Both the position numbers and the translations under genes were made by a program. A DNA stretch of 64,000 bases. Source: Botryllus schlosseri (Eukaryota). Location of the stretch: contig CM119371.1 of the NCBI GenBank assembly GCA_051294905.1, positions 20,958,001 to 21,022,000 of the forward strand, given 5' to 3'. Below the pieces are notes generated by a model. The model did no database searches. It was not told the origin of the DNA and worked only from the letters and a program-made list of their open reading frames with translations. Below are positions 8,235 through 63,341 of the stretch, one piece after another (position 1 is the first letter of the stretch; each line of letters begins with the position of its first letter).

Positions 8235-8303
8235 GCAAATGAAAGAGTTGCGTACGAAGACAAGTACGAACAAGCGTATAAGGAATTTTCTGAGAAGATC
8301 CAG
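8235..8303 (+). CDS. Helical-repeat (atlastin/GBP 3HB-like) gene, module 1 short exon
   Basis: ttcatacag|...|gtcaga; 69 nt, phase 0-0; ANERVAYEDKYEQAYKEFSEKIQ. Confidence 0.85.
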
Positions 8304-9154
8304 GTCAGAATATTTTACAATCTGTTATTAAAATATAAAAGCTGGCAACACAATTAGACGGAAACATTCACTCATTGAATTTCTAACCACGAATCATTGC
8401 TCGACACCAACCATTGGATTATGCATTTTACATATCTAGTTTATCCTTGTATATATTTTCAGATGCATGGTATTTTTGAATTTTTATGAGATCAGAAACC
8501 ATCATTCCAAGATTTATTGCGTCTGACACGAAACCTGCACCAGACATGATCAAATGCAATCCAATTACTTATTGGTATGCAACAATATATCGATAGATAT
8601 ATTGGCGAAGAGGTCGCGATTAAGACCTACGATTGATATTTTAGGAGTGTCGCGCTATATGGTGAATCATTCGGACCCCTATTAAGTGCACGACCAGTAC
8701 TCCCGCCATGTTGCGGTGGCTGAACTGCCGATATGGTTCTGTGTAAGCTGTCTTCCCTTAAACTTACAACGCCGCAAAGTCCTATAAGTTTACTGATCTA
8801 AATATACGCGATCTTGAAGTACGGTAGAAACAATATATTGCTCAAAGCTCCACTTGATCGGATTTCCTTATATCCAAACTATAATACGACACAGCAGTAG
8901 CACGAATAAGATATTGTCCCAAGATAATTGTTAGTTACAGTGGGGAAACGTTTGGTGAGCCAATTACTATTGATACACACAGATCCCACTAGTATAAGTG
9001 CCCGGTCGTGACGCGTAAAATATAATAGATAAACAAGCGACCGGAAATCAGAAAAGGCGCATTTTGGAGTCAGAAACGCTGTATTTTGAGCTGCCTGGTG
9101 GTCGAAAATAGGCCTTTCGGAAGTCAGAAACGCTGTATTTCGGAAGTCACATTC

Positions 9155-9412
9155 GCTGCATTTTGACCTGTGTGATACGCTAAAAGTGTCCTATATCTTT
9201 TCGCAAAATATAATCAATAAGCCGACACAGGAATTTAGAAACGCGGTGCGTTGTGCAACCTGATTTTGGAACAGATGTTCGCAGCTGCATTTTGATCTGT
9301 GTGATACGCTAAAAGGGTCCTATATCTTTTCGCAAAATATAATCAATAAGCCGACACAGGAAATTCAGAAACGCGGCCCGTTGTGCAAGCGGATTTTGAA
9401 AAACAGATGTCC
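9155..9412. repeat. Direct tandem duplication, ~129-bp unit x2
   Basis: GCTGCATTTTGA.CTGTGTGATACGCTAAAAG.GTCCTATATCTTTTCGCAAAATATAATCAATAAGCCGACACAGG occurs at ~9155 and ~9284. Confidence 0.85.
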
Positions 9413-11170
9413 GGGCGCGCGCTACCTATATTCCGTGTGACAAATGATTCTGGCATCCTGCCCGCTAACATCCTGAATTGTTTCCCGTGAAAACAGCTGG
9501 TTGGATGTTTTGTTCGGCTACAGTATACTGAACTATCGTAATATGGTATCGAGTATTACACTAGTCCAGTCAGTTCTATTACATTCAGCAGTATTCAGTA
9601 ATCAGTATTCAGCAGCGACACGAAAATATCACTTATTTCTGCTCTAACCCAAATCCTTTGCGAAGTTTACGCTTATTCAAAAAAGGTCTGAAACAATTGT
9701 AAAATCCTACCGTCGCTCATAGGATAATGCTTCAGACAAAGCGATATCTCAATCACTGCACAACCGAAGTTGAATCGTATCGGAACGCGTAAATTTGTCA
9801 CCTTGACATCAAGATTCGAACACCAACAACTTGGTGCTTTATGTTCTAACTCTAATTCTTTGCGAGTTAATCTTTTTCGCGACCAAAATCACTACACAAC
9901 TGAAGCTGAATTGTTGTCGAATGCGTTAATTCGTCACCTCGACATCGAAATAATCTTATCCAAAGTCTTTAAACATGGTACTGTGCTATATCCGCTATTA
10001 CGAATAGCGTTTCTCACTTGTAATGTCCACATATTGATTTGAAACACGTAAATTCATGAACTCCTACAACTTTATTAGCTATCCAGTTATTTTTGTCGTA
10101 GCTGGAAATGTAATCGCTAGTACATCTTACCATGGACAAGAGAGTTATTCGCAACAACATTCACACGTGTTAATCCAATTTTCACTTACTCGATTAGATC
10201 ACTACAACTTGCAAACTTAAATAATTCATCCTGGTTGTATTCATATGACTGGTCTTTTTTTTATTTTATTCAACTGTAAAAGTCGTTACTATTCTGAAAG
10301 TCAAAGTAATAACTCCGTGCATATACGACTTAACATATTAAACATATTATGTTTCGAGTACACAAGTTTGATTACCCGGTCGATCGCAGAAGAGAATTAT
10401 TTTATCGCAAGTGAATCGTATATTACAGTGTAAAAAATATAGGAATGTCAGCACCTCTTACGGGTATAGTTGTTACCACATTCACTAATTTATCCGGCTA
10501 ACTCGTCATGATCATTCTTGAAATCAATGCAAACCTGGTCACTGACTTGAGTTAACCACAAAACAGCATCATTTTTTTAATTCTGCGTGCAGCTGTTGGA
10601 TTATTCACATTCGTCGATAGAGAATATTATTGAACTCGTAAGTATGCTATTTCAACGAACTTTCGTTTTATTCCAACCGCGAAAAATAACGTCCAATCGT
10701 AAGACTTGAATCAAATCACACATTTGTTTGATGATAACACACATACAACAAAAACATTATCGTGATTTTGTAAACTGGTCATACTAATCAATGCATTTGC
10801 CAATATTAAAATACAAGTCGTCAGACCCTTTTGTTTAAAGTATCATTTTTGTAAACTGGTCATGATAAGGCGAGGTCGGCAATGACGAATCCAGATGATA
10901 AAGATCCTGCGAGTAAAAGATTGATAGAATCCTGGTTCGATGCATTGGTGTCCATTGGTGTTGCGACCCGTCCACTGTGTGCGACCTACAACGCCACTCG
11001 CCTTGCCATTTGAAATTTATTGTATGAACAATGCATCATTGCATATAAAAATCTCATGTATATATATTCAATACTTTACTTGAAAGTCGTCGCTTACATG
11101 TTTACTATTTTTAAACTAGCCATTGAACAATGATATCTAGTAGTCCATTGATGATTGTCTATTTATATAG

Positions 11171-11380
11171 AAAAGCATTTGTGGCGAATCCTTAGCGAAA
11201 ATCGAGACATCGTACGAGAAACTTTCGGCCGAGATTCTTCACACTTTTGACGAAGGAGTATCGCAATGGAAGGAGGCCAGTGAAAAAGGAAAACAACATG
11301 AAGAGAAATACAGAAATAAGCTTGTGCTTCATATGCAATATGCTATATCAGGGAAGGTTGAGGAATGGAAAATCCAGGAA
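11171..11380 (+). CDS. Helical-repeat gene, module 1 long exon
   Basis: tttatatag|...|gtatgg; 210 nt, phase 0-0; KSICGESLAKIETSYEKLSAEILHTFDEG...YRNKLVLHMQYAISGKVEEWKIQE. Confidence 0.88.
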
Positions 11381-11544
11381 GTATGGTTACGCTGTCTTTT
11401 TACACCCATTAAAATTTCCTTTCGCTTATTTTCAACTGTGAATTCTTTTAAATTGATATTTGTACTTACATGTCGTGCGTGCTGCGTTTCAAGCCTGTAC
11501 GTATATATTGAACTGGAAAATTTTATACAAAATGACTTAACACC

Positions 11545-12425
11545 TAGTAGTGTTTTCTTGGGGTTTTAAGGTTGCTGATTACGAATATCACTTTGGATTT
11601 GCCAGGTTTACTTTGGTTTAGAAGACACATGTACCATAAATACCACAAAATTGTACTTATGCGCAAATGAATTATGTGCCAATTGGTTTTTCTACCACAA
11701 TGAAAATGTTGTATGGAGCTATTCAAATTCGTCCCTGAAAAGCTTATCTGCGATACTTATACAGGGCTCATCACTGTTGACTTTTAAATGGTTATTTGTT
11801 TTGCAAGGCTAACAAAGTGGGCATCTCTGCTATATATGTTTTTGGTACAGCAGGGCCAGAGTCCAGCTACCGCAATGTACACTGATTCAAAGTCATGGTT
11901 TTGCTTTTGAGCCTAATAACTCTGTTAGTGTGTCAATAACTCTTTAAAAGGGTGGATCCGGAATATCTTCGAGTTTGCTAAATGTTTTACTGCAATTGAT
12001 GTTGTATAGAAAGAAAACTTCCTCTTTTCATCAAATTGTGGTTAACAAAGCAGTTTTAAAGGCACTTAACAAAGGGAGGAATAGTAGTTCATTTGCAGAT
12101 AATTTCGGGAACTCTCTTTAGTAGACCTCAGATTTGAATGCGGATGTCATGTTATAATTCAATATAAATAGAATAGCTTAATGCGTCTAATTATTGCAAG
12201 TAAGTAATAAAAATACCTCTATGGAAATTTCCCAAGCTACCAAATACAAAGAGTTGGTTCACAATTGTAATCTGCACGTGGAAAACATGAACATCAAAGT
12301 TCACTTCCTGTTCAGTCACATTGATATATTTCTTGATCATCTTGGTGATTAAGAGTGAAGATCAAGGGAAAGGCTTCACCAATACATCAAAACAACAACA
12401 TATAGGTGTCAGGGCAGATGAGATA
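11545..12425 (+). mobile_element. Degenerate Chapaev3-like transposase remnant
   Basis: Fragments QSGHLCYICFWYSRAR, IKLWLTKQF/KALNK, MNIKVHFLFSHIDIFLDHLGD and SEDQG/RLHQYIKT (H..H...LG..SE.GE.H pattern of RAG1/Transib/Chapaev); many stops; boundaries approximate. Confidence 0.7.
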
Positions 12426-12435
12426 CACATATAGT

Positions 12436-13604
12436 CAGGGCATGGTACGATATTGAATATAATTGGATTTCCATAATCCATACCCGCCTTAATTGTTCCA
12501 TACCTTACTGACAATTTCCCATACCATAGCAGCATTCTTCCATACCATATTTGATACTTTTTCATACTTTAGGAGTTGCCCAACCTCTTAGATAATGTAA
12601 TATATTTGATATTTTGAAATTTTATATTTCATTTATTATTCATTCAACGAAACACCTCTGATGCTCCAATGATATCCCCAAGTTTTTCGTGTCATATCAT
12701 TCATATGTCGTCAGCGATGTAGATTGCTTAACAATCGATGACGGAAAGTGAAATATATCCACATAGGATTATTCACGAATCACATCACAAGCTCATGACA
12801 TGTAAATCTAGTGAGGAAACGAACTGCTAGCAGTAGTAGTATCTATGGAATTACATGACAGAATGGTATTGTCCCATTAGAATATATATTTGAAATTAAT
12901 TTTGCATCATCACAATCATCAGGGATTTTTTAGTGACAACGGATCAAATAGCCAATTCCCTGCCAATCTGTGATTCATAAGCTTCATAAGCCAACAGCAA
13001 GATGTCCATTGTTATTTATTTTATCAGTGATAACCAGATTTCATGATGTTACATTGCGTGTTGCAGGCCGCATGGCGCAACGTCTCTCCGAGAAAAAACT
13101 ACATAAAAAAAAATATAATGCTGCTTGAGTAAAATGGGTATTTCGTGATGATCCTCCGACCAAGGCGCTAGAAATTATTCCCAAGTTCAACAAATTATTA
13201 TAAAAAAATTATGTAGGCTACTCGCAACAGAGTCTTCGATTTTAAAACCCCCCCTCGTAGTTTACGGAGCGGCAGTTGCGATAAGCGAAATGCAAGTTGT
13301 AACGCGACAGCGGTCGAATATAATTCGTTTTTATATTCAAATTGGAATATTTATCAATATTGATATTTTGCCTTCATATGCGCGTTGCACAACTTTATTG
13401 TCTTTAAATAGGCGTCGACATGGGTGGGTGAGTCATGAATCGCATTATGAGATATTGACATATACAGTGAACGATTTTCTTAGGTATGCAAGTAATTTGA
13501 AAATCCGAAAGTAGGATGATTGTCATGTTTCTGGCAAAATTTCCAAAGTATGGAAGAGTTCGGAACAAAAATTTCTGCGTCATACCATACCATACCATGC
13601 CTAG
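12436..13604. mobile_element. Non-autonomous hAT-like element with CCATAC subterminal repeats
   Basis: Starts CAGGGCATGGTA, ends TACCATGCCTAG; multiple CCATAC motifs at both ends; imperfect TSD. Confidence 0.55.
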
Positions 13605-14675: not shown

Positions 14676-14744
14676 GAAAACAGACAGTTAAAATTGAGAT
14701 TGAAATCTGAAGAGTTATCTGAACAGTACGTTAAAAGTGTGAAA
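14676..14744 (+). CDS. Helical-repeat gene, module 2 short exon
   Basis: tttttcactag|...|gtgagt; 69 nt, phase 0-0; ENRQLKLRLKSEELSEQYVKSVK. Confidence 0.85.
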
Positions 14745-17700
14745 GTGAGTATTGATTTCCTCCATCATAATTTTGAAGATATATGTCCGGGAATATCATG
14801 ATTACAAAATTAAAATATCGAAACAACATTGCAAAGTTGTTGTTATCATCCTTTTTCTCGGCAGGACAATCGCCTTTCTCAAACCCCAACTTATCTCTCG
14901 TTGTCCCATTGATATCGCACCATTTTGGCAGAATATAAACTATCGTTGTACAAACAATTGCTTTGGTCACCTAATTGTTTACTACAATATCAATATGTAA
15001 AATGGTTTAGTCGTCAACTACATTGGACCCCAATGCATGGATTGTGGAACTATTGCTACCTATCACATTGGTTATAATTGTGACTCAGGAACTTGTGACT
15101 TGGTTACAGCCCAGTCACAAACTTCTTGCACGAAATGTTGTAAATCACGCACCAAAAATCACTGAACTTCGTATTTACTATTCGTATTTACTAAATACAA
15201 GTAATGAACATTGAACTAGAATGTCCCACCTTGGCACGCACAATGTTGGTATATGTCGGTTATATAATGCTTCTTGTTCTACAGTCCCATTCCATTTAAA
15301 CTGTCATGATCGTTACTGATGACAAACGTATACGTGACTATGATATCGGTGGCCTAACCTCAGTACATAAGAAACAATTCTCTATTTCAGCTGGTAAGAT
15401 AGCGCAGAGCAGGGGTGTCAAACATACGGCCCGCCAGACGATTTCATGCCGTCATAATAATCCCTCAAGACAACAAATGTTGTGTATGATTATAGAGCGC
15501 ATTCTAACCAGCATCTGACAGAGATCTTGCGGTTTCACTCTAGTCATCAGTCGGGAAAGGGGCCAGAAAATAGGCTAGTTCTTCACAAAAGAGATAACGC
15601 CAATGTGAAACTGTTATACGCACGTAACATGGAGAATAATATTTACTCACAAAATCTAATTCAAATGTCGCACCGCTGTATATGTATTTGCTCAAAATCT
15701 CACCGACATCCGAATCGCGATTTAATACTGATGAACCAAATTAAAAAGCCCACGTTTACACTCAAATCTCTTGTAAACCTTACACCGCATACCCAGGGCT
15801 TACACCAGATTACGACTAAAAAAGGTAGCATAGCATTATGCCAACATGAAATTCGACAATGCCAATATTTATCGTCGTAACTGTTTTAGTGTTAACAACA
15901 GTGTTGGGGTCTGATTTCGTGAACCACCTTTTGGGGTGTGTATACCCACTCTTTTCGCTAGGAGTGTAGTCTTCTACTATAGATTCCCAATCACCGTAGG
16001 CTACTTATCTATCATTCAACCAGCCAATCACCGTATTATTGCGGATTCGATTCCATTGTTTGCCAAAAAGAATGTTGCTAGAATATACTCATGTGATCGG
16101 CGATATAATGTAAAATACTTCCACGTATACCGGCTTGATACTCTAGTATCAAATCAACAAGAGCATATATTTTGACGCAACATATTGGAAGAATTTGACT
16201 GGTCCGGGCCACGAGCGATCGCATGGTCGGAATCCGGCCCGCTAGGTAGAAAATTACCAATGTAGTCGACACACTTTGAATAGACAAAAACGGTCCTCCT
16301 CTCTCCCTCCCCAAACCCGTACAGCTTTCAACAGAAACCAAATGCCAGAAAATACCAAATATAACAACATACCCGCTGCAGGGGATGACATATTTTCTTC
16401 ATCATGCTATACATAGCATTGGAATGGTTGGCATACACTCTTTTAACTACTAGAAAAGTGTTATGTAGCCTACTCCAATGCGCGAGTAATGATGGTGATG
16501 TAACCTGTCGGGGTGCTGATAACTTCAGATATAGTCAACCACCCCCATTCATGATATTTCACCCTCACTATAGTGCTATCGATGCTATAGCATCGTGACG
16601 ACTAAGAATAATAGAGGTCAGCAGTACTTACTCATAATACTAATATTTCGCTCTCTTTATTACTGTGATGACTGAAAGCATTGCTTCATTGTCACGATAT
16701 CTGAGACACACATGTGCTCCATATACAATTGATATAGCTGAAAAAAATTCTGGTAGACCAGAGGACAGGTTGTACAAATTTGTTAGTTCGAGGGCTCAAA
16801 ACCCCGGCAGTTGAGTCAGAGTTGTAGTCGGTATATTGAAAATGTGTGGAGTCGTAGTTGTAGTCAGTATAATGAAAATGTTTGGACTAGGAGTCGGAGT
16901 TGGAGTCGGTGGTAAATGTACCGACACCGCAGCCCTTCTCAAAAAAATAATTTATTTGAATATATTGGGTCTGAAGACATGTAGATAATACGAACATATA
17001 TCATTAAATAAATCAAATATCGACTTGATAATAACGCGCACGCGTCAGAAGCATTAACGAGATTTACATGCTGATCATACTCAATATACAATTTGGTAAA
17101 ATAAGATGAAAGCCGATTGTGCCGATTCTTAGGACAGGATGGACATTTTAATCTGTGGACTCTGAACTTTTCATAGATTTGCTGATTCCCATGTGGGTTT
17201 AATTTCAGGATACACTATGCTGACACCATCAAGTCCAGCACATGACCTTTGGATACGCTTGTGAAAATGACCAACTGTGTTAGCACTTAGCATGCACAAA
17301 CCCCGTTATTCACATTCTTTTGCGAATACGACACCAACAGAATTTACTGCAGCCTCAAAAATTTTTTTTGATTCGTAGCTCATAATTTCATACATTGTGC
17401 CTATATATAATTCGGATCTTCGGTTTAAAGCAGGGATATCAAATTCAAATGTGCTTGTGGGTCAATTTCCTATTTTTTTTATGAGGTGGGCCGCAGAATC
17501 AAATTTCGGGGTATTCAATGTTTTTCGAAGTCAGCATTGTATGATGGAACCTTGCAAATTGATATTCTACCAACACCGTGAAAATGTGATTTACAATCGT
17601 ACAATTGATGATGTCATTGTCCAAGTTGAATTGAAACAGCGTTAGATTAACCTTCGAACAGAATATATTTAATATCGCCCATTGCCGTGACCGCGGTGGT

Positions 17701-18286: not shown

Positions 18287-18463
18287 AACTGTCTTACCGT
18301 GGACAAACTTAAATCCAAGACCAAGACCTTCATTTCAAAAATAATAAAAGAAAAATCTGAATCGAAATACGACAGGAAACATTTTGAGCAACTCATAGAC
18401 ACAAAATGTAAAGAAATGAAGCAACGTATCGAGGAAAGAGAAGAAGAGGAAAAAAAGGCAAAG
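18287..18463 (+). CDS. Helical-repeat gene, module 2 long exon
   Basis: tactttcag|...|gtgaaa; 177 nt, phase 0-0; NCLTVDKLKSKTKTFISKII...FEQLIDTKCKEMKQRIEEREEEEKKAK. Confidence 0.82.
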
Positions 18464-18699: not shown

Positions 18700-21600
18700 T
18701 CATAGGCAGTCGCAATGACATAAAAAAACAAATCACAGTGAGCCGTGTTATAAGTCGACAGCAGAAGAAACAATCTGGATATACCGCACCTGGACGTACC
18801 CGCCGTTGGAACAGGCGCATGACCCCAGACGACTCGTCAACTCCCAACACACAGCAACACCAAAGAGGAGATATTTCTCAACATGGTGCCTGTGTAACAC
18901 CGAACAGTGGCACACAAATCAGCTCCGCTGCAAGAGAAAATTAGAAGGGACTCATATGGAGTAAAGAAGAGTATAAAGTGAAAATGAAATGTCACTTCCT
19001 GGCCAATCATGAAAACTCGGCAGGAGTAACCGAAGAAACTTTTCAAAAATGGAAAGTGAGAACAAAGAACTATCCAATCCTGGCAAATATGAGACGCCGT
19101 GTAATTAGGGTTGGGACTTCGGGATCAAATTTCAAATCCCGGGATCGGGATTTCCCGGGATTTTCGCTCCTCAATCCCGGGATTGGCAAAGTAGCAAAAT
19201 GCACATACAACTACACAGACAACATTTATTCCTTGTAATATTGACGCAAAAACATGCTCCCGTGAATACGAATGAAACGCAGCGATCGAAAGCCACCCGG
19301 ATAAGGAGCGTTTAAATTCATGTACCGTCTGCTTCGTGTAGGAGTTGATTTGTCCAACGTGATCGAAAAACGTCCATCATTCCGTTACATTGCCATAAGC
19401 TCCTCTTCCACACACTTGCGGATTTTTTTGTGCTCGATCGCGAAGTCCCGAACCCGTTTGTGACATCTTGGCAAGTTATCGCCGTCAGCCATGAAGGCCC
19501 GACGAATTTGCTCACTTTGGAGGAATTTGTTTAAATGCTAGCCCGTCCACAGCAGTTAACTGACTAGGAAGTTCATCGAACCGAGGATTATGCGATTTAG
19601 AAAAGGAATGGTATTTTTTGACTTGCCCGATTGAGTGATGCGGATTAATTTAATTACTATCATGTGTACGGACCTTAAATGCGTTACCAGTCACTTTTTG
19701 CTATACCAGTGGTTCCCACCCTTTTTTCGTCTCATCGCCCCCTAATCAACCTTGACACAAATTTTCGCCCCCCATCCCCTATCCCCTATCATTCACCTAA
19801 CTACTTTGATCGCCAAAGAATTGAGTAAATAAAAAGGTATTTTTTCCGAGTAGGTGCTCCAAAAACCGGTTTCCGCCGTTAATTTGACCATTTTTAGTCA
19901 ACTTTGGTGTCGTATGCAGAATAAGCCACTGCTACGATTCGTAGACTACGACGGAAATGATTGTGCAGTTCATTTTATGCCATAGTTGGTTTTATTATCA
20001 TAACTGTGAATTCTTTTAGACAATCAGCCGAATTTGTAACACTGCTTTATTACCAAAATAAGAGACACGACGCTACGTAAGCCTTGGTAGATGCTGTTTA
20101 CAAATCCCGGGATTTCATTGCGATTAATCCCGGGATCGGGATTGCTTCAAATCCCGGGATCCCGGGATCGGGATTTCCCGAGGTCCCAACGCTACGTGTA
20201 ATCAGAAAATTATCAGAACAAGAGCTCGCAGAAATCGAAGGCGAAATTTGTAACAAAATCACAGAAAATTCTGAGGCACTAGAACTTCAATTTGGCCACG
20301 ATGGCCTGAATCCACAACAAGCACCTGACGACCCGAACATCGCAGAAGTAGAATTACAAAACATCATCGGGCACCCGAATGAATCAAAAACACCTTACGA
20401 TGAGAAAATAGACACGGAATTAGAATTAGAGACCAAAAATCAAGTCATCGACCGAGTGATCTCCACATTGGATATAAATGACAGAGTAAATTTACCTGAC
20501 CTACAAATTACAAAGAAACTGAAAACTGATATTCCAGTAGCGAACAAATTTTTTACAGAAACCATACTACATGCAATTTTGAATGAAAAACAAGGAGAAA
20601 CGCTACAGCTATCTCAGAAAGACACTGCAAAATACCAAGAACTCTCAACAAAGAAAGGAACGATATGCCAGCTTGGCAACGTGGAATTGAACACAAAATC
20701 GTAAAGCTAATGTGTGACGTTGCGATACTCTCAGAACTAAAAAAAGGAAATGCTTCCCGTAAACTAAAAAAAAAAACAAGGTAAAAAGAATAGAACAGGA
20801 GCACCAAACCAAGTTGCAGTCAACAGAAAAAGTGACAATGTTGCAAGAAGAATTAAAAATGAGAATATGCACCAAAGCACAAGGATTGAGACGCTATATA
20901 ATACAAGAAACACAATACCGCCAAAACTTGTTATTTGCTCGCAAACCTGGCCAATTTTTCCGAATGATGAAACAGAAGTCAAACCACAAAATTACCAGCA
21001 GTACAATACCAGCCACCGCAGATGTGGAATCATTTTGGAAGAAAATATGGGAAACCAAAAATTCGCACAGCTCATATGAAAATTGGGTAAAACACCTCCA
21101 CACTGACCACCTACAAACACCAGAACAACAATGGTCAGAAATACCCAATCAAGAAATCAAGGAGGCCCTAAAATACTCACTGAATTGGAAAGCAGCTGGT
21201 CCTGACCAAATCAAAAACTTTTGAATAAAAAAACTAACTGTAACTCATGAATACCTAGCAGCAACCTACAGTGAGCTATTATCCTCAACCAACTCGCACG
21301 AGATACTAACCTGGTTCACACAAGGGATCACCTATCTTATTCCACAAAATGAAAACACCAGGTCCTCAAGAACTACTGGCTGATAGCATGACTGACAACC
21401 ATGTTTGAAAACCGCAAGAGGAGACACACTAACCTCAGCATGTGGCATGGATAAACTACAAAAAAGCTTTTGATTATGTCCCTGACACATGGATACTGAA
21501 CACAATGCGTATGTACAGAATTAATCCGATCATCGTCAGATTTGTTGAGAACTCAATGAATATTTGGCATACAAAACTGTTGATAAAACATGACCGAGGT

Positions 21601-23646
21601 GAAACAGAAACCTGTAAATTCAGATCCACAATGGTATCATTCAATCCGTCTCATTCTCACCACTGCTATTCCGCCTCAGCTTATCTCCACTCAGTGAGTT
21701 GCTAAGATAAAATAAAGTAGGATACGAGATAAAAGAAAGCAACAAACTCTGATCTCAAACGATTCATGGAGGATCTGAAAATGTATGCGAAATCCAATGA
21801 CGACCTGAATATCCAAATGAAAATTGTTGAGGAGTTTTCGGAGGATGTTGAAAACGAAATTTGGCGTGGATTAATGCTCAAATCTTACCATACGACGTGG
21901 AAGAGCCACTAGCATTGATGACATGAATTTCAGACATAAATTTCAAAATGGACGAAGTCATAACATAACTGAATGCTGAAGATCACTATAAATATCCGGT
22001 GATCTGTGAAAATGACAACAATAAGCATACTGAAATGAAATCAAGTCTAAAAAAGAATACATTAGCAGGCTCAAGTCAATCCTCAAAACAGAACTCAATT
22101 CCCAAAACAAAATCAATGCCATAAACAGTCTTGCAGTGCCTGTCTTGAGATACAGCGTTGATGCGGTGAACTGGCGCAGAGATGAAGTCAATAAACTGGA
22201 CACAAAGACGAGAAAACTGATGACAATGCACCACATGCATCACCCAAAATCTGATACGCAAAGGCTGTACACCCCTCCCCCCCCCCCCCAATAAAAGTGG
22301 TCGATGCCTACAAGAAATTAGACAAACTTTCAAAACAGAAATCATCGGATTGTCACAGTACATCCACTACAGCGGTAACATTACTGCAAACTAATTGCAC
22401 AGGAAGACAAACAGCGCAAAACAAAATATTTGAGTTATCGACACCACAAGTACGCCAGAGAAGTCAACATGGAAACAACCAACCTGTACACTAATGAAAA
22501 CACTTTTGTCAAACCCACAACAATAGTAAAAGCAGCACGAATTCAATACAACAACGCAACACTCAAAATGAGAGAAACGATATGGGAGTCGATGTCTCTT
22601 CATGGACAGCACAAGAAGGTAACTTCACAGCCCCATGTAGACGAGCTTCCATTGACCTAGCTATCCAGCTCTGGCCTGAAACCGGCAAGCGAAGGATGCA
22701 TTTTCGCAGCACAAGACAAATCGCTTCCTACAAAATACTATCGCAAAAGAATTCTGAAGCAAAACACGGACGACAACTGCAGAATGTGCCACAACCAAAA
22801 TGAAACTATAGTACACCTCATGTCCGGCTGTGGTGCACTTGCAGCTAGCGGTTGCCGGTTACACATGGAGACACAATAGTATCGGACACTACATTCATCT
22901 TGAATTATGCAAACATTTTAACATCATCACTTCGGCAAAAAAATGGTATGATAACAGCACAAGTGACAGAAAACGACCAAATAAAAATTATGTGGGATGT
23001 ACCAGTTATAAATGACCGCCAAATCAGGAGCAACCGTCCGGATATGATTATCAAAATAAAAAAATAAAAAGAATGCTTATTCATTATACTGGCCGTCCCA
23101 GTTGATCAAAACATACTACAAGAAGAACCAGAGAAACAGTCGAAATACGCAGAGCTCAGAATGGAATGTGTGAAAATGTGGCGATGGAAAAGAAACATTG
23201 TACCGATCGTCATTGGCACTACAGGGATCATAAGCAAAAAACTCATGTGACATATCCAAAAGATTCCGGGTAACGTTCGATTCGATATGATCCAAAAGAT
23301 CACGTTATTGGGCATTGTTAATATTCTTCGGAAGCCCTTGAATTCACCACTGAACTAAGATTACAGTTGTGCACGTGAATCACAGCATAAGTTCTGTAAT
23401 TTCGATTCTTCAATTTCAATCATCTCTATCTCTGCTCTGCAGCCCGTGCCAATTCGTCATCTACCGGAATTCAGTAATCTGACCTCTTTATATATTGCAC
23501 AGGAATAGCAATTTGACTATATTACTGAAATTTTAAAAATTTACTCCAATCCCGCCATTTTTCTTTGGGGGGAGGTTGCTCCCTGATTATGTGTGTATTT
23601 ACCAATTTTACTGTGAACTAGGAATATAATATTAAATAATAATAAT
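18700..23646 (+). mobile_element. Degenerate non-LTR retrotransposon, R4/Dong-like (RT plus C-terminal restriction-like endonuclease)
   Basis: N-terminal WSKEE..MKCHF..LANMRRRVIRKLSEQEL; RT motifs NWKAAGPDQI, GITYLIP, AWINYKKAFDYV, FMEDLKMYA; CCHC CRMC..ETIVHLMSGC; RHN; MWD..RPDMII; KYAEL; IVPIVIGTTG; many stops and frameshifts; (TAA)n tail at ~23637-23646; 5' end approximate. Confidence 0.88.
19106..20194. mobile_element. Non-autonomous hAT element inserted in the retrotransposon ORF
   Basis: TIRs TAGGGTTGGGAC / GTCCCAACGCTA; perfect TSD cgtgtaat; ATCCCGGGAT subterminal arrays; removing it restores RRRVI-RKLSEQ. Confidence 0.9.
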
Positions 23647-23957
23647 GCGCATATTCTTCGGAAGGCCTTGAATGCACCACTAGACTGAAATTACACTTGC
23701 GAATCACAGCATTATTTCGATTATTTCGATTCTTTATTTTCAATCATCTCTACCTCTGCTCTGTAACACTTGCCAGTTCTTCTTTTACTGCAATTCTATA
23801 TTCTGGCCTTTTCATGTATTGCCTAGGAATAACAATTTAACTGTATTACTGAAATTTTAGAAATGTACTCTATTCTCGCCATTTTCCTTTGCGGGCAGGT
23901 TAGTTCTCGTATTATTGGTGTACTTACCAGTTTTACTGTGAATAAAGAAAGTAATAT
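23647..23957 (+). mobile_element. Second, 5'-truncated 3' end of the same retrotransposon family
   Basis: ATATTCTTCGGAAG.CCTTGAAT.CACCACT... at 23651 repeats 23321-23630 with divergence. Confidence 0.8.
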
Positions 23958-24122
23958 TGTGTAGGCTACGTTACGGAGAATGTAGATCAGGCTTGCAGTC
24001 CAGGATGGGAGTATGATTCTGTGGTGGCGACCTTCATTGAATGAGAAGCCGGATGACGACTATGAAGGCAGCGTCGTCAACATAAATGTAGGCGGTCCAC
24101 TTATTGAATTTATTTTTAAAAG

Positions 24123-24191
24123 GTATTAAGACAAGAAATGTGTGAATATGAGGTTACCAAGTTGCACGACCAATTCGAGATGAAGATTCGG
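24123..24191 (+). CDS. Helical-repeat gene, module 3 short exon
   Basis: tttttaaaag|...|gtgagt; 69 nt, phase 0-0; VLRQEMCEYEVTKLHDQFEMKIR. Confidence 0.85.
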
Positions 24192-24389: not shown

Positions 24390-24967
24390 CAGGGTTGTAA
24401 CCAAGTCACAAGGCTCCGAGTCACAAGTCAATTTCACTTTATAATTTTGATTTGAGTCAAGTCGAGTCATTTTCAACTCACCAGCGAGTCAAGTCCGAGT
24501 CCAAGTCATCGATCAGAGGGTCGAGTCCGAGTCATGGTATTATGACTCGAGTCGAGTTCAAGTCAATACGTTGACTGCTCAGTTCCCAGCTAAAGTGTTG
24601 TTAAACTCACTTTTTATAACTCTGTTTGGTGATTTTGAATGGTTCGCATTTATAATATAGTAATTTCCCTCACTTTTACCAGGTTCTGATCGCATTCTCA
24701 CGTGCTAGTACCAATATACGAAATCCCAATAGGGTGGTTACTTCACTATTCTTCGAAATTACGATATAATATCGGTCTTGACCGTCTGCGTCTCGAGTCA
24801 TATGATTTGGTTCGAGTCATGCGCAATGACTCGAGTCCAAGTCGAGTCAATACACAGATTGACTCGAGTCGAGTCGAGTCATTTCCGTTTTTTGAGAAAA
24901 TGACTCGAGTCAAGTCGAGTCATCAGAAAATCGTGACTCGAGTCTGACTCGAGTCATTACAACCCTG
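24390..24967. mobile_element. MITE (hAT) with GACTCGAGTC arrays
   Basis: TIRs CAGGGTTGTAA / TTACAACCCTG; perfect TSD ttcataag. Confidence 0.9.
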
Positions 24968-26166: not shown

Positions 26167-26370
26167 ATGGTCAAAGGCACGACGAAAGAAATGATCGAGG
26201 CATCATCTAAGAAGCTATTTGTCGAAATGCTGAATAATTTCAATGAAACGGTATTAAAGTGGGACGAAAAAAAAGGCAACGGAGAGGATATGACCAAGTA
26301 CTACACTATACTTGAGCAAAAGATGAAAGTCACAATTAAAGCGAAGGTTACGGAATGGGTAAAGCGAAAG
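26167..26370 (+). CDS. Helical-repeat gene, module 3 long exon
   Basis: catttatag|...|gtgaaa; 204 nt, phase 0-0; MVKGTTKEMIEASSKKLFVEMLNNFNETVLKW...YYTILEQKMKVTIKAKVTEWVKRK; clearly similar to the module 1 long exon. Confidence 0.88.
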
Positions 26371-29564: not shown

Positions 29565-29630
29565 GAAGAAGGTGCGACCTTCCAGAAGATAATGAAAAAA
29601 GTATTTAACGAGTTTGAAGAGCAGATCAAG
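29565..29630 (+). CDS. Helical-repeat gene, module 4 short exon
   Basis: catttcaacag|...|gtgcgt; 66 nt, phase 0-0; EEGATFQKIMKKVFNEFEEQIK. Confidence 0.87.
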
Positions 29631-30884: not shown

Positions 30885-31091
30885 AGCATCGATGGTCCTT
30901 CCTTGGACGAATTACACGGATCCTGTCAGCGACTATCAGAAGAAACGCTGGATAGGTACTGTAATATGGCAGGAATGGATGGAGTGAGTCAGGATGGACT
31001 GCCCCAGCTAATAGCATACAAGGAGAAACTGAGAGAAAAGATGGAGAGTGCAATATCACAGAAGATTTCCATATGGTCCGGAAAAGAACAG
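30885..31091 (+). CDS. Helical-repeat gene, module 4 long exon
   Basis: caatttag|...|gtttta; 207 nt, phase 0-0; SIDGPSLDELHGSCQRLSEETLDRY...YKEKLREKMESAISQKISIWSGKEQ. Confidence 0.87.
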
Positions 31092-32436: not shown

Positions 32437-32508
32437 GTAAAACATGAACGAAGACGTATCGAAAATATATTCGATGACGCATACAACGAATTCACCGGAG
32501 AACTAATG
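32437..32508 (+). CDS. Helical-repeat gene, module 5 short exon
   Basis: gctttaaag|...|gtgagt; 72 nt, phase 0-0; VKHERRRIENIFDDAYNEFTGELM. Confidence 0.87.
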
Positions 32509-33934: not shown

Positions 33935-34144
33935 ACCGCTGAAGGTGAAACCGAAGAAGTGGTGCTGGAATCGTGTAAGGACTTGAGAGAAAAAACGCTT
34001 CAAAGGGTTGAGGGCAATGTGTCGAACGAAGAAATTGAAGAAAATGAAACACTTCTGTCTCTTCAAAAAAAACTACTGGTGATTAGACTTGACGATGACA
34101 CTAGAAAGAAGATTACGGAATGGAGAAGAGTTCGGGAAGAAATG
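33935..34144 (+). CDS. Helical-repeat gene, module 5 long exon
   Basis: tattgcag|...|gtaaaa; 210 nt, phase 0-0; TAEGETEEVVLESCKDLREKTLQRV...RLDDDTRKKITEWRRVREEM. Confidence 0.87.
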
Positions 34145-42194: not shown

Positions 42195-42257
42195 GAAATG
42201 GGCATCATCAGGGACGAAATGGAGGATGCACAAGACGATTTTATCGACAACATCGAG
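42195..42257 (+). CDS. Helical-repeat gene, module 6 short exon
   Basis: tttatttatag|...|gttcgt; 63 nt, phase 0-0; EMGIIRDEMEDAQDDFIDNIE. Confidence 0.82.
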
Positions 42258-44425: not shown

Positions 44426-44629
44426 AGAATCCATGGTTACTCCGAAGATATGATGCGAAGATTGTACTCGGATCTATCGATAAAAACGCTTCAAAACTTC
44501 AAGGATCGTACAGAGTCGGCACTGAGTCTTGAATTGAGTCGCAATCGGCTGGCGACATGCATGGAGAAACTGCGAGAAACTCTGAATGTAGTTGCTATGA
44601 ATAAAGTTTACGAATGGATGAGGGAACAG
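44426..44629 (+). CDS. Helical-repeat gene, module 6 long exon
   Basis: tatataatag|...|gttgga; 204 nt, phase 0-0; RIHGYSEDMMRRLYSDLSIKTLQNF...CMEKLRETLNVVAMNKVYEWMREQ. Confidence 0.87.
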
Positions 44630-48377: not shown

Positions 48378-48485
48378 GAAATGCGGAGACGAATGATTAA
48401 AGAGAATTTGGAGAAACGGAATGACCGCCGCTTGAGGAGCCAATGGCTCGAATTGATGAATGAAAAAGCAGATACCAAAAAGCAG
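48378..48485 (+). CDS. Helical-repeat gene, exon 13 in window (extended helix)
   Basis: tgaaacag|...|gtatgg; 108 nt, phase 0-0; EMRRRMIKENLEKRNDRRLRSQWLELMNEKADTKKQ. Confidence 0.8.
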
Positions 48486-54242: not shown

Positions 54243-54314
54243 ATATCTACGTGATTACTGAGTAGTTCATTATTGTACTGCAAATTTTTGAAACATATAT
54301 TTTCTTTTCAATAG

Positions 54315-56331: not shown

Positions 56332-56430
56332 CAAAACGAGGTTGATGAAGTCAACTGTCTCCTTCTCTAAGCCAAATTGAGAGACAAACGAATATAATCC
56401 AAGACCCGAGCGCATGTCTTATTGAAACAG
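56332..56430 (+). pseudogene. Decayed G-domain exon X
   Basis: tattttcag|...|gtaccg; 99 nt, phase 0-0; QNEVDEVNCLLL*AKL... vs atlastin [16 protein letters not shown]; two in-frame TAA. Confidence 0.55.
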
Positions 56431-57650: not shown

Positions 57651-57894
57651 TCCATGCCCCTGTCACAAGAGTTTCAGATACTAAATGATATTTTGTTATC
57701 ACTATCCCAATGCATTCATTTTCATGATTGAGCGAGTTGCATGATATTTGTTGTGAGTTTGCTCTTAATCATTTGTGATGTTCGTAATTTCATGGACTAT
57801 TCCGGAAACGGTTTCAACTGCTGATTTGAATTTATGAAACCCTGTCACAGCAGCTATTGGAAATTTGAATGTTTGCACGTATTTAATAACCCAG
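57651..57894 (+). pseudogene. Possible decayed final G-domain exon D
   Basis: LSQEFQILNDILLSL...ICDVRNFMDY loosely resembles atlastin [16 protein letters not shown]...ITCRGLVEY; several stops; donor cag|gttggg; acceptor uncertain. Confidence 0.3.
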
Positions 57895-58386
57895 GTTGGG
57901 TATTATAAACGTCATTTATTATTGAATCAATAAAATCTGATTTTATTTTGAGCCCTGCGTTCCGGTGACTAGTCAACCAGCCACTTTGAGACTGAACACT
58001 TTTTAGGTAAACACCTTTAATTTAAACACTTCGCAACACCTTTAGGCGTTCAATTTTTGGATCACGTTTCGTGTTCAATTTTCCGGGTTGAGCAACACTT
58101 CAAAACTTAGAGTGTAGAACTTCAATTTTCAGTGCTGTACACGAAAAAAAGATTCTCGATTAAATATATAAGATTCGTTCTCTGTGCGCAGTTTGGTATA
58201 ATTCGCTCTCCAACTCATTCATACTGAAATTTCCAAATGAATAATAAAAGTGAAAAGTTTTGAGTACGTGAAAAGTACGTGAAGAGGCAAGTTTGACACA
58301 GTACGCCTGATATGCTGCTTATGACGCTGTGAGCATTGTGTATATTGAAGTTGAACAAACGCTGAATCAGCATAGATCTACTAGCT

Positions 58387-60570
58387 CAGTGGGTATCAAC
58401 CTTTTTCATCTCCCCTTGGCCGATCTTTGAGCCAAAATTCCTCCCTAAGAAAAAGTTTCCCGGTGACTAAAAATGGTGCTTTTTTACGACAACCATTTGT
58501 CGACTGGGCAATATATGCCCAAATATATTCAGATATGCATGCCCAAACTATGTCGAATGTGATCCGCATTGTTACACTTTGGTAAAGTACCGCGGGCTAC
58601 TTTCATATCAATTATTTAGCACTAGGTTTATTTATTGTTATTTGGGGATTTACTAAATCAAAAGAAATTAGGTCATCACTTTCCGTTATGGTAGCATTGC
58701 TCTAAATTTGACATGTTTTTTCTGCCGTTTAGGTAGCTCCTGACTACAAATAAATCACCAAGTTTGCTTTTGCGATGACGTTGAGTTGAATCGATGACTT
58801 CACATGTTTTTCACGTTGGCTCAGATGTTGGTCTAAAAAGATGAATATTTTCCGAGGCGGTCTTCTGTGCTGCATTCGGCATGACTTTTCCCTGCTTAGT
58901 GGCAATTTGGTCTCTAGAGGTCAAACGAAATTTTCTCGCGAGCCTCACATTTTCAGGGGGTGGAATTTCTACAGAAAAAAAAGATTATAAAAAGCATTTA
59001 ACCATATATCTATAGCTAAGAACAGGGTTGCCATCGACATAGACCGAAAAATAAGGACAGTCGAAAAATTAGATTAGCATGAAAAATCGTTTTTGAACAT
59101 ACTTTGTATTTATACGAGCAGTAGCATATCACATTCCATACTTTTCGCCAAAAACAATCTGCTCCAGCAACTCCTTGTTATTAGAAAATGCTTCATGGAT
59201 CTCACGAGAGCTCAGGTCTAGGTTTATCTTTACTCAGGGCCGAAACAGCACTTCGTCAGCCCCCCCCCCCAAAAAAACGTTGATCTTGCCTCCCACCCCC
59301 CATAGGGTGATAAACCAAACTTCTCCACCTCGTTGTGATTAGAGGCGTCCACCAAGATGGAAAAAGGCCGTACACCATGTTTAGACAAAATCATTTTTGA
59401 GCGTATGGAGCAAGAACTCGAGTAACAATGCTTGTAGTCTTGGTCCTGGCCGAAAAAATATTTGTGATGTTGGAATCGGCAAATATTGTTTTGAACAATT
59501 GCGATGTGAAATCGTTGGTGAGGAATGATTGCTGGTGTTTGACACTATGGAATGCCCAGGTACCCTCTGCAGCAGCAGCTGCCTTGTCGTCTGTGGTCGT
59601 TGGTGCTGATCGACTGGCTCAAATTAATCATTATGACACACTTCTTGCGTTTTGGGCTATCAATGTGAGTTGAAATAGCGGTCTTTCCTATAGCCTCCAG
59701 GTTAATGTCACAATTGCAGATATTGCTATGTGCGAAACACTCGCCCTTGGAACTTCGTTAGATATCTTTGAATTCTCTCTCATAATAGTCACGAAAAACG
59801 TTTTTACGCCTGCTCATTTTTACTAATCAGATTTAGCCTTATTAGTAGCTAAAACTATGTGTGCAAGTGCAATATAATTTAGAAAAAAATTTCAATTATT
59901 AATAGCTTTACTACTTTTTAACCAATGTGTAGACTGCACTGCGCCTTTTTTCACTACGCCTTAAATGCGGCCTTCCCCACCGCTTGAGCTTATTCTGCTG
60001 TAGACTAAACAGCAGGAACTTGGTACTGCTGTTTACTGCTAAAATGACGTCCGCCGTGGTAGCTTGGTACAGACGAAACCAATCACGGCCCGAGCTTTCT
60101 CACCACTTGGAAGTCTAATCTTATGGTGTGTACGTCACGAGAGTTCCTTTCCTTTATGATATCATAAAATCTCGATACAAAAGCATAATTTATGAATATT
60201 ATGCAACACAAATACCAGAGGAAAACGATCGAAGTTCTGTAGTGGTTGAAAATAAGACAAAATAAGGACGCAAGTCGAAAATAAGGACATTTCTTAGAAA
60301 TAAGGACAGTCGAGTTTTCTAAGACGTGGGCCTTCAAAATAAGGACAAATCTTAGAAATAAGGACGGTATGGCAACCCTGGCTAAGAATCTGCCAAAAGA
60401 AACATACAATTGTAACGAACTAGTTTCATACTTTACATTTCTGCCATAAAAGTCAAAAAATCTCGTGAACCCAGAGCATCTTGCGTTGCTACCCTATAAA
60501 GCCAGATTCCCCCCTAAAAATCTCAAAATTCTCCCCAAGGGGGGAATTCCACCCCAGTTGGGAACCACTG
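58387..60570. mobile_element. hAT family A copy 3 with nested insertion
   Basis: CAGTGGGTATCAAC...GTTGGGAACCACTG; perfect TSD tactagct. Confidence 0.88.
59023..60380. mobile_element. hAT (Blackjack-like termini) with AAATAAGGAC repeats, nested in family A
   Basis: TIRs CAGGGTTGCCAT / ATGGCAACCCTG; perfect TSD gctaagaa. Confidence 0.9.
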
Positions 60571-60745
60571 TACTAGCTGATCACGGCCCGAATACTCAAA
60601 TTTCCAACCTTTTTTAAGAATCGGCAAAACCTATTTTAATTTTGACGAATATATTTAAGATAACCAGCTTATAAAATCTCGTTAATGTTTCTAACGCATG
60701 TCCGACCATCAAACCCATGTTTAAATCATTTTGTTCTGTCTATAG

Positions 60746-62889
60746 CAGTGCTCTTCAACCGTTTTCGTCGTGGTACACCGTTTTACCGTTAGTTCGAAAC
60801 TCGTACATAACACACCGATTCCTCATAGTAAGCGTAATCTATGGATGTTCAACCTTTATGCTATTCATACCGGTTATACATAGGGGCTACATATATAGCA
60901 TAGGGACTCATTCCGGTGAGAGTGTCACATACTCCCGTGAAATTGGCTATTGGGAATCTCGCAGGAAAAGGCAACTGGAGTCCTTTTCTAGTCGCACAAG
61001 GCGCGAAAAAAAAAATCAACTGGAAAATCGATAATATCGATAGTCGATAATATCGGTTGTTTCATATATCACTGTCAAATATTTACCCAATTTCAGCTGA
61101 CGTGATTAGAATAACTGGTATATGATGATGATGCATCCTCTTGTTTTTAATAATCCCTTTGTTGCATGTTGTTATTTTTGACCTCTCACCGGGATTGTGG
61201 GCATAGCGGAAATATATATTTGAATTGCCTAAACGTACCAGATAAACTTCATTCGTCAGACGCACCCGATTATGACTTGGAATTTATTTATCGGATGCAT
61301 ATTTTCCTCTGCGGTTCGCATTTGTGCGGTGAAGCTCTGATCACACTAATACAATAAAAACGAAAAATCCAAGTCTCTACCGGGGGTCCACTAATCATTT
61401 TCAGGGGACCGCAAAATCTCCGAATTTGCAAAATGGTTCAGAACCAAATTTGTATTTTTTTGAATTAGAGAAATCAAAAGCCAGTATTTCTTCATAACTG
61501 CTAAAACTTTAAGACTCACATAAACATAATGTCCGTCTAACTAATATGAAGTATTTTACTGCGCGCACTAATTTTAATTTTCAAATTCCTAATAGATTAT
61601 TGATACAAACATATTTCGGTTTAAAGACGTTTTGTAGCGGCGCTGGATTATATTTGTTAGAAAAACAAACTATTCGGAGATATGCATAACCCCTATTCCA
61701 GAATAATTCAAGATGGGTAGGCAGATAGAAAAGACAAGGTTGGACGTTAAATGTTCCTTAAAATTATGTTTCTCAATTTGGTGCCATATTTGTTGCGATC
61801 ATATCCAAAGTTGGCGGGAGCGATACCCGTTATTATCACACTCACCACCAACAATCTTCGAGGAAATGTATTTCCGAACTATCAAATTTCAGTTGGATAT
61901 TTTCAAGACACGGCCGCGCTTTCAAGAAATGCAGCTACACGATTCATTTTGAACTAATAAAAGTCTTCCCAATTTCTATAAATAGTATGACGTTTATGGT
62001 TGCGGTCACGGTTATAAAGTCATATGCTCAAGTGCCGCATTATGTTGAATCGCATTCTCAATAGTCGACAATGACATATTCTATATCACGGCTCTTCAAT
62101 CGGGTGTTTCGTACACCATGGGATGTATCAGACCCACATTAAAATGGTTCAATGACTAGCTATCACAATAAATAGGCACGTTTATGCCTCAGAACACGAT
62201 GACTGGGTGTGCAATAGTACAGTGTTCATATCAGCTGTACGCAGTTTGTAAATTACAGTTCTTTCGTGATGTCAGAAGCAAATGCTTTTACAATCCTGAT
62301 GGGACTTCAAAAATAACAACATGCAACAAAGTGTTTAATAAACCTTTAATATGTATTATCATTAATTTGGTACCGCGAATTTTCAAAGACACCCTCTACA
62401 TCCGCTCTATCAGTTAATCCCACCACATGGGCTAAGAATGCATAAATATTTGACGGTATCATATGAAACAACCAATAGTATAGACGAGGTAGAAAAGGAG
62501 TCCAGGTGACATTTCCTAGCATTTATACTCACATTTCGGTGCATAGACATAGTAAGTTTCCGTACATCAGAAAACTTCTTTACGCAACGTATATCTCAAT
62601 GAATCAGTGATGTCAAAGAACCCCATAATGGATATCCGCGGTGTCAAGTTTCCCATAGCCCATTTATCGTGAGTATATGATTTCGAGATGCGCCTTGACG
62701 ATTATACGCCAGAGGGCGGTTGTATGTATGCTATAATTGCAATCGAAATACGGCCATGAATAGCAAAAAGGTTGATCACCCCTGTCTTAGGCTTAGCACG
62801 GAATGAGCGTGTTATGTGGACCAGGGGTGTACGAGATTCAAGTAAACGTTAAACGGGTGTACCACGACGACAAATGTTGAAGAGCACTG
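60746..62889. mobile_element. Non-autonomous hAT element, probably with internal insertions
   Basis: TIRs CAGTGCTCTTCAAC / GTTGAAGAGCACTG plus TCGTCGTGGTACACC subterminal inverted repeat; TSD gtctatag/gtctatat. Confidence 0.88.
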
Positions 62890-63107
62890 GTCTATATGTT
62901 GCCAAAAGCAGATTTCACTTGTAGTAAATAATTGATTGCCCCTTTACATTCTCTATTTCTTGCAATATGTTAATAATATAAATCTTTGTGTTAAGACGAA
63001 ATCTGAATGGAATCGGAAGGGAAAACACAAGGGCTGGACAGTGAGAAAAACCTCATTACAATGACATGCTATTGCACAATATAACACTGAGTCTTACCTT
63101 TGTTTAG

Positions 63108-63341
63108 GAAATAAAGTCACTAAGCTTGAATGATCAGGACATGCAAGATATTTACGAAGAGATGCGGCGTATCGTACTATGCGAGTATTGGTCGACTAAT
63201 CTGCAGAGCATCGAAAAATTAAGCTTGAAGTATTTGAACGTGAAGTTATTGGATGCATGGGAGCAGATTACAAAGATTACTGGACTTCAGTCGTATCTTC
63301 CATTATATCCGTTTCCTAATATAAATGACAGGGCGGATGAG
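63108..63341 (+). CDS. Helical-repeat gene, exon 14 in window (3HB-like long exon)
   Basis: cctttgtttag|...|gtcagt; 234 nt, phase 0-0, open; EIKSLSLNDQDMQDIYEEMRRIVLCEY...YLNVKLLDAWEQI...; its link to exon 13 is inferred. Confidence 0.75.

Follow-up and report, generated by a model that had tools for sequence, protein, structure and literature searches.

A 64,000-nucleotide (nt) stretch of the Botryllus schlosseri genome (GenBank assembly GCA_051294905.1, contig CM119371.1, positions 20,958,001 to 21,022,000 of the forward strand; hereafter the window) was found to carry an array of 14 exons lying inside a larger gene. We consider it probable, at about 0.72, that this is one large gene for an anchor-less GTPase of the atlastin branch of the dynamin superfamily, in which the stalk consists of tandem copies of the exon pair for the atlastin three-helix bundle, five of them related to one another and probably a degenerate sixth. 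Atlastins and GBPs are mechanochemical GTPases in which a helical lever next to the G domain turns GTP hydrolysis into membrane tethering, fusion or coating. In the contig numbering of our genome searches the window is G000:C1:20958001-21022000, within a 495.5-Mb eukaryotic assembly; its composition is about 39% G+C and long open reading frames of bacterial type are absent. The gene is one of a cluster of five + strand paralogues (A to E, the studied gene being C) on C1 at 20.56-21.46 Mb, in each of which a G-domain match lies 10-28 kb upstream of a long-exon match.

The exon array and its coding constraint

The exons were located from the lengths given in a preliminary description of this DNA, which had proposed 14 AG/GT-bounded, stop-free exons that splice to a single frame of 654 amino acids (aa). 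The array was confirmed: all 14 exons were found on the + strand at exactly those lengths, are bounded by AG and GT, contain no stop codon and are in phase 0 at both ends, and together they sum to 1962 nt, or 654 aa. Short (S) and long (L) exons alternate and are numbered in pairs. For the leave-one-out values given below, each long exon of the repeat was searched with a profile of the other four against 2507 six-frame stop-free frames of the window; the S-motif is the ending [EQD][FY]xxx[IVL]x.

8235-8303, + strand: S1, 23 aa, predicted helix 1 of module 1, after the last G-domain exon; 96% in paralogue D with no indel, 61% in paralogue E
11171-11380, + strand: L1, 70 aa, predicted helices 2 and 3 of module 1; leave-one-out E value 8.4e-11; orthologous exons in paralogues D, E, A and B
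14676-14744, + strand: S2, putative, 23 aa; AG/GTGAGT, stop-free; in paralogue D without indel; ends in the S-motif; missed by the S profile
18287-18463, + strand: L2, charged helical exon of 59 aa, possibly a degenerate, shortened module 2; 86% in paralogue D, 42-44% in paralogue E; long-exon profile E value 480
24123-24191, + strand: S3, putative, module 3; AG/GTGAGT, stop-free; conserved in paralogue D; ends in the S-motif; missed by the S profile
26167-26370, + strand: L3, module 3; leave-one-out E value 2.6e-9, rank 1/2507; paralogue D orthologue 87%
29565-29630, + strand: S4, module 4; AG/GT, phase 0; S profile rank 1, E value 0.36; conserved in paralogue D
30885-31091, + strand: L4, module 4; leave-one-out E value 5.5e-9; paralogue D orthologue 90%
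32437-32508, + strand: S5, module 5; 72 nt, the canonical atlastin exon size; AG/GTGAGT; S profile rank 1, E value 0.25; conserved in paralogue D
33935-34144, + strand: L5, module 5; leave-one-out E value 1.8e-4; paralogue D orthologue 86%
42195-42257, + strand: S6, putative, module 6; AG/GT, stop-free; S profile rank 3, E value 4; ends in the S-motif; conserved in paralogue D
44426-44629, + strand: L6, module 6; leave-one-out E value 3.1e-6; paralogue D orthologue 81-85%
48378-48485, + strand: S7, helical exon of 36 aa, conserved C-terminal part; in paralogues D and E; no S-profile match
63108-63341, + strand: L7, 78 aa, conserved C-terminal part; in paralogue D and in paralogue E (45%, E value 1e-13); long-exon profile E value 26

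L1, L3, L4, L5 and L6 each ranked first in the leave-one-out searches, with E values from 8.4e-11 to 1.8e-4, and the best unrelated frame in these searches gave E >= 1.2. The same five exons have the xxGx[ST] starts and K[VI]xxW ends that had been reported for five of the long exons. Thus the predicted internal repeat is present in these five, which are clearly related to one another in their predicted translations, with module-to-module identities of 18-32%. L2 (E value 480) and L7 (E value 26) were not recovered from the 2507 window frames by the long-exon profile. The short exons carry less signal: S1, S4 and S5 ranked first in their own leave-one-out searches but with E values of 0.25-0.49, S6 ranked third, and S2, S3 and S7 were not found by short-exon profile searches of the window. 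A profile of S1, S4 and S5 combined picked neither S2, S3, S6 or S7 nor better candidates in those introns, each of which holds, as a chance background, 8-10 stop-free AG..GT pieces of the exact length. The splice contexts of S2, S3 and S6 are strong, and S1-S6 all terminate in the S-motif, which among comparable candidates occurs in 8/333 on the + strand and 0/279 on the - strand; because the motif was composed after viewing the six exons, this count is partly circular. Two more stop-free AG..GT pieces with the same ending, at window 1321-1389 and 3254-3325 (+ strand) in the 11-kb intron before S1, probably occur by chance.

Structure prediction with AlphaFold2 (AF2) on L1, with 13 related exons as alignment, gave a helix at 8-31, a loop and a helix at 38-69, with a mean predicted local distance difference test score (pLDDT) of 85.4; AF2 on L2 gave a helix at 5-24, a loop and a helix at 30-58 (pLDDT 87.8). 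Because L2 folds like L1 in these models and S2 ends in the S-motif, S2/L2 is plausibly a shortened, diverged sixth module. S7 and L7 are better read as part of a conserved C-terminal region, because they are kept in paralogue E, which is without modules 3-6. The seven tandem modules of the preliminary description are thereby reduced to five (modules 1 and 3-6) that the leave-one-out profiles demonstrably relate, with S2/L2 as a plausible degenerate sixth and S7/L7 not a module at all.

Coding constraint was assessed against paralogue D, a segmental duplicate about 305 kb downstream (loci L007-L018) in which the introns can be aligned as well. D carries 14/14 exons at identical length with 0 indels and 0 stops, and GT donors are present at 14/14 and AG acceptors at 13/14. 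The exception is the acceptor of L1 (L011 near 4360), where AG has become CG; an in-frame AG 3 nt downstream gives an exon one codon shorter. Between C and D the exons differ by 133 mismatches in 1962 nt (6.8%) with 0 gap openings, and the aligned introns by 3139 mismatches in 30,624 nt (10.3%) with 285 gap openings (9.3 per kb). Had gaps opened in the exons as often as in the introns, 18.3 of them would be expected there (probability of none, 1.2e-8), and random placement of 133 substitutions left all 14 frames open in 3/5000 trials. Because there are no indels or stops and the frames are open beyond chance, the comparison shows the predicted exons to have been retained as coding sequence in both C and D. 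The ratio of non-synonymous to synonymous differences per site (pN/pS) is 0.52 over the 14 exons, 0.49 over five pieces of G-domain exons and 0.86 over the three tail exons; the gene is, judged by these ratios, fast-evolving.

G domain, tail and the link to the atlastin bundle

The interval had been taken for a stand-alone hidden gene. It proved instead to be the middle third of a larger + strand gene of about 104 kb, which reaches 24.5 kb beyond the window on the upstream side and 16 kb on the downstream side, with G-domain exons before the array and tail exons after it. The product would be roughly 1100-1200 aa, an estimate made with the 5' end left undefined. In the 40 kb taken upstream of the window, five G-domain exons were found on the + strand; the flanking exons, in window-relative positions, are as follows.

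-24.5 kb, + strand: P-loop exon, identified by its frame motif
-18.0 kb, + strand: switch-I exon, identified by its frame motif
-11.4 kb, + strand: DTQG exon, identified by its frame motif; site of the genome-wide PF02263 match
-6.1 kb, + strand: RD exon, identified by its frame motif
-3.0 kb, + strand: last G-domain exon, identified by its frame; precedes S1
66126-66278, + strand: tail exon 1, colinear with paralogue E
71690-71776, + strand: tail exon 2, colinear with paralogue E
79631-79936, + strand: tail exon 3, colinear with paralogue E and followed by the stop

The upstream frames could be read for the motifs GxxRxGKS, TTG, DTQG and RD, with G1, G3 and G4 intact and the switch I threonine present, so that all four marks of a GBP-type large G domain (P-loop G1, switch I T, DxxG G3 and RD G4) were found. 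Three of the exons fall in order on the Pfam family GBP (PF02263), at model positions 10-45 (E 1.5e-4), 70-120 (E 1.9e-9) and 190-231 (E 0.061). Searched against the PDB, the DTQG exon matched atlastin-1 at E 5.3e-7 and atlastin-3 at E 2.8e-5, and GBP5/GBP1 at E 0.5-0.7; the P-loop exon matched atlastin-1 at E 4.5e-5, with GBP absent from its 22 matches. By these exon-wise PDB matches the G domain appears nearer to atlastins than to GBPs. The exons therefore belong, as had been suggested, to an atlastin-family gene, the G-domain exons upstream on the same strand matching atlastin-1/3 best in the PDB. The terminal stop is at the identical place in this gene, D and E. The idea that S7/L7 are part of another gene was rejected, since paralogue E has S7/L7 colinear with its G domain and tail exons.

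No transmembrane segment was found in the 654 aa, in which the maximum 19-aa Kyte-Doolittle mean is 0.41, 38.5% of the residues are charged and there are five prolines. The frames of the three tail exons reach maxima of 0.83, 1.65 and 0.47, and the stretch at 1.65 is charged and amphipathic; these values cover the detected exons only. Thus the two transmembrane segments that follow the bundle in a canonical atlastin were not seen in the studied gene, and the features of an anchor-less atlastin (an atlastin-type G domain, a long helical middle and no transmembrane segment) all were. The protein's final 18-20 residues form a basic stretch whose helical hydrophobic moment, taken over 18 aa, is 0.86 and which is a predicted C-terminal amphipathic helix that may bind membrane. 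The terminal frame ends in RPRQQ without a CaaX box, and the D and E ends are likewise without CaaX.

The exon structure of the bundle itself could be read from locus L027 on C11, where this genome has its canonical atlastin. Behind the last G-domain exon of L027 stands a phase-0 exon of 72 nt, matching ATL1 350-372 (E 0.0095). The exon after it matches ATL1 374-443 over its first 70 codons (E 1.6e-18) and continues into hydrophobic segments; all introns in this region are phase 0. According to PMC10954664, S398 of ATL1 is in the middle of the bundle's second helix and N440 in the linker that follows; given the mapping and these positions, the two exons of L027 encode the bundle. Locus L028 (C10) has a bundle exon pair of 72 + 198 nt. 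The studied gene has S1 (69 nt) and then L1 (210 nt) behind its last G-domain exon, at intron phases identical to those of L027, which supports module 1 standing in the exact slot of the canonical bundle, directly after the last G-domain exon. Modules 3-6 are made of 63-72 + 204-210 nt, a unit of about 91-94 aa. The 23-aa S exon together with the 24- and 32-aa helices of L1 would give three helices, each about as long as in a bundle; searched against known structures, the two-helix L1 model returned generic helical matches only. Descent of the modules from the atlastin bundle is thus argued from position, exon structure and the relatedness of modules 3-6 to module 1, not from direct similarity.

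Paralogues and the history of the stalk

Paralogue D carries the full set of modules. The order of exons in paralogue E (loci L019-L026 and L031) is G domain, S1, L1, L2, S7, L7 and the three tail exons, as in the studied gene, and these shared exons are kept open; E is without modules 3-6, its L2-S7 gap being only 4.8 kb and the module profile matching it once. In paralogues A and B, at least one long-exon place each was found, the same for four different module queries (best candidates scored), and the long exons of both are 204 nt and AG/GT-bounded. The layouts of E, A and B indicate that the ancestor had a G domain, the bundle, S2/L2, S7/L7 and the tail, in this order, without modules 3-6. 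A tree of the long exons pairs C with D for each module and is otherwise a star in which the order of duplication is not resolved. Because of this pairing, modules 3-6 would have been inserted, by tandem exon-pair duplication, before the C/D split. The amplification is either old or was followed by fast divergence, given that the modules are only 18-32% identical.

Genome-wide, PF02263 gave 36 exon-level matches on C1, C2, C4, C6, C10, C11 and C13, with clusters including C6 9.9-10.36 Mb, C10 0.85-1.37 Mb and C4 25.26-25.33 Mb, which points to a large family of candidate atlastin/GBP-type genes. At locus L028 (G000:C10:10488001-10498000) a compact atlastin-like gene shows exons for the P-loop, DTQG and RD and, where transmembrane segments would be expected, charged helical exons; it is, by its predicted exons, another anchor-less family member. 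The last G-domain exon of the studied gene aligned end to end with L028 by BLASTP at E 0.15. A further atlastin-like gene, L032, lies on C1 near 29.0 Mb, 8 Mb away; within a compact 8.5 kb it has exon pairs of 72 + 195, 72 + 210 and 72 + 186 nt. Its modules were undetected by the module profile of the studied gene (best E 0.48) and were matched weakly by the canonical profile (E 0.015-0.028). Since the module profile misses L032, its array and the studied one are either old separate lineages or independent amplifications.

Beyond the genome, the module profile matched none of 5.8 billion proteins (longer class) and gave 0 matches at E <= 0.001 among 1.84 billion representatives; the P-loop exon, with 7 candidates, had none in the longer-class protein library. 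Because even a G-domain exon matches nothing, these libraries are evidently without the studied lineage, and no rarity is implied.

Repeats and retroelement-like sequence were also seen around the gene. Upstream of the window and of the P-loop exon, L001:6446-8242 (+ strand) is a 599-aa open frame that by eye resembles a LINE-type (long interspersed nuclear element) reverse transcriptase. The L2-S3 intron holds, at window 20081-23354 (+ strand), broken frames resembling a decayed retroelement, with an A-rich + strand (AT skew 0.215 in 20001-24000); Pfam at E <= 0.01 gave nothing in four frames of this run, and nothing in nine other large frames of the window. A dispersed repeat with a translation rich in S, R, V, E and K ('...RVKSS...' frames) occurs at window 24401-24947 (+ strand), in L003, at L027:3051-3557 and in paralogues D and E. 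It sits in introns of several atlastin-like genes and is a source of non-colinear protein matches. Two small tandem repeats, at window 2097-2143 and 16813-16886, have periods of 21 and 36 and about 2 copies each, with no evident link to the gene.

Competing explanations and known systems

Several results weigh against a stalk of atlastin bundles, or against the gene model that carries it. Profile comparison of the modules with canonical bundle exons by hhalign was not significant (P 0.17 when long exons were compared, 0.16 when spliced modules were). With three more bundles in the target it gave P 0.19, a score of 11.8 against 9.3 +/- 1.9 for 200 column-shuffled controls, and bridging through the L032 bundles did not raise the score. 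Only the module-1 profile, built from five module-1 exons, reached P 0.022, over 20 columns and in register. The resemblance to ATL1 proposed in the preliminary description was therefore not statistically detectable (P 0.16-0.19, and 0.022 for module-1 types only), and the Pfam family GBP_C (PF02841), to which it had looked, gave no match to the modules at E <= 10. PDB profile searches with module queries (A1, A5) returned no atlastin or GBP. The last G-domain exon has no significant atlastin match in a PDB profile search, and BLASTP against the canonical exon gave nothing. Because our model is incomplete at the 5' end and in some G-domain exons, an intact full-length frame is presumptive. The case for S2, S3 and S6 consists of their splice signals, open frames, a motif defined after the fact and conservation largely common to the introns.

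It is also possible, however, that the repeats are real coding exons of the GTPase gene but a lineage-specific helical or coiled-coil repeat, spectrin-like or of plain hairpins, which replaced or followed the original middle domain. We think this unlikely. Module 1 occupies the exact bundle slot, with the same two phase-0 introns and near-equal exon sizes as three other atlastin-type genes of the genome, the weak hhalign alignments between modules and bundle are all in the expected register, and the helix lengths (23 aa, then 24 and 32 aa) fit a bundle. Eight exons, long and short, were searched against Pfam and had no relevant match at E <= 10, to spectrin or otherwise. The proposal that the modules are an amplified atlastin bundle is thus favoured by exon layout, slot and single-module paralogues, though not by any significant sequence match. 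The first interpretation is partly supported: its core, an atlastin-family gene with an amplified bundle exon pair, holds, and its module count was too high.

A further concern is that the locus is a non-functional or unexpressed duplicate, or that the model is wrong in part (S2, S3 and S6 being unused), the apparent constraint reflecting only the youth of the C/D duplication. Exon use, splicing and expression are read from sequence; pN/pS of about 0.5 in the stalk (0.52), with 0.86 in the tail, fits relaxed constraint as well; the exons are little more alike (93% identity) than the introns (90%); the S profile misses S2, S3 and S6; and, all exons being in phase 0, any skip preserves the frame. 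Against these points stand the 0 indels and 0 stops in 1962 nt in both copies, compared with 9.3 gap openings per kb in the introns (P 1.2e-8; 3/5000 random placements), the retained splice sites, the intact G1, G3 and G4 motifs and an older paralogue, E, that holds the shared exons open, and we regard this reading as quite improbable. Even less credence is given to the gene being a relative of GBPs rather than atlastins, with modules copied from part of the GBP helical domain. The Pfam name of the G-domain family, GBP (PF02263), covers both groups, and a soluble protein with a long helical stalk and a tandem gene cluster is GBP-like. PDB matches, on the other hand, favour atlastin by about six orders of magnitude (5.3e-7 vs 0.5), no GBP is among the 22 matches of the P-loop exon, GBP_C had no exon-wise match genome-wide at E <= 10 (an insensitive search when made exon by exon) and there is no CaaX end, all of which make this origin highly improbable.

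For an anchor-less atlastin-branch GTPase with a stalk of repeated bundles, a mode of action can be proposed by analogy. The G domains would dimerise head-to-head on GTP, as in atlastin and GBPs, and the first bundle would serve as the lever. The added bundles (five or six, with 24-32-residue helices, in series) would form a rod of about 20-30 nm, and the C-terminal amphipathic helix might bind membrane reversibly, replacing the transmembrane segments. The protein would then be cytosolic, a recruitable tether or coat of the BmAtlastin-n/GBP kind, possibly acting in defence. Dimerisation, lever and amphipathic-helix mechanism are drawn from passages of work on atlastins and GBPs (PMC10954664; PMC9005921); for the studied gene we infer the fold of the whole module, expression, the geometry of the rod and function. 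Tandem clustering, variation in module number and high pN/pS would fit a role in defence without proving it.

A bolder extension, which we hold to be doubtful though not far-fetched, is that stalk length is evolvable, with one bundle in A, B and E, five to six in this gene and D, and a separate multiplication of exon pairs in L032. Stalk length would then tune the reach of a soluble GBP-like tether or coat GTPase, and the pN/pS of 0.5-0.9 would come from conflict with pathogens. If so, the symmetric phase-0 bundle exon pair would be a naturally modular unit whose amplification has happened at least twice. Should the preferred reading be true, close paralogues with one versus five or six bundles would provide a natural series for relating stalk length to reach, oligomerisation and membrane action, and duplication of a symmetric phase-0 exon pair would be a clean case of domain amplification. 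This value is tempered by an expression and a function that are both predicted from the DNA. No description of tandem atlastin bundles was found in the titles and abstracts returned by full-text literature searches.

Among known systems, spectrin rods are alike in concept, being tandem three-helix units of about 90-106 residues; the studied unit is about 91-94 aa, has no Pfam spectrin match at E <= 10 and traces by position to the atlastin exon pair. GBP1-7, as described in PMC9005921, resemble the predicted protein as soluble dynamin-like GTPases of the same G-domain superfamily; they too have a long helical stalk, lie in paralogue clusters and evolve fast. They differ in that the studied G-domain exons match them far worse than atlastin, in GBP_C and CaaX, both missing here, and in having a single helical domain instead of a stalk of repeated units. 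That review also asks whether invertebrate atlastins assume GBP-like defence roles (PMC9005921).

Closer in design is BmAtlastin-n, an antiviral, anchor-less silkworm atlastin of 770 aa with a long helical ('coiled-coil') middle domain, according to passages of PMC4926086. By description, it and silkworm Atlastin3/4 share with the studied gene an atlastin-type GTPase domain, a long helical middle, no transmembrane segments and a C-terminal part of unassigned function, and a role in defence has been proposed for them (PMC4926086). The comparison is one of descriptions rather than sequences, and the middle domain of BmAtlastin-n is described there as a coiled coil, not as tandem three-helix bundles. 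The studied gene would thus extend the little-studied anchor-less invertebrate atlastins. With canonical atlastins (human ATL1-3, Drosophila atlastin; PDB 3q5d/3q5e, 5vgr, 3x1d; L027 in this genome) it shares the G-domain motifs and the best PDB matches, a helical unit that directly adjoins the G domain and is split between a short phase-0 exon and a long one, and a C-terminal amphipathic helix, computed for the studied gene and taken for atlastin from passages of PMC4926086. It differs from them in module sequences too diverged for significant profile matches, and in the long exon, which in L027 runs into hydrophobic segments of which none were found here. It differs also in its place in a five-gene tandem cluster and in having five to six bundles in series where a canonical atlastin has one.

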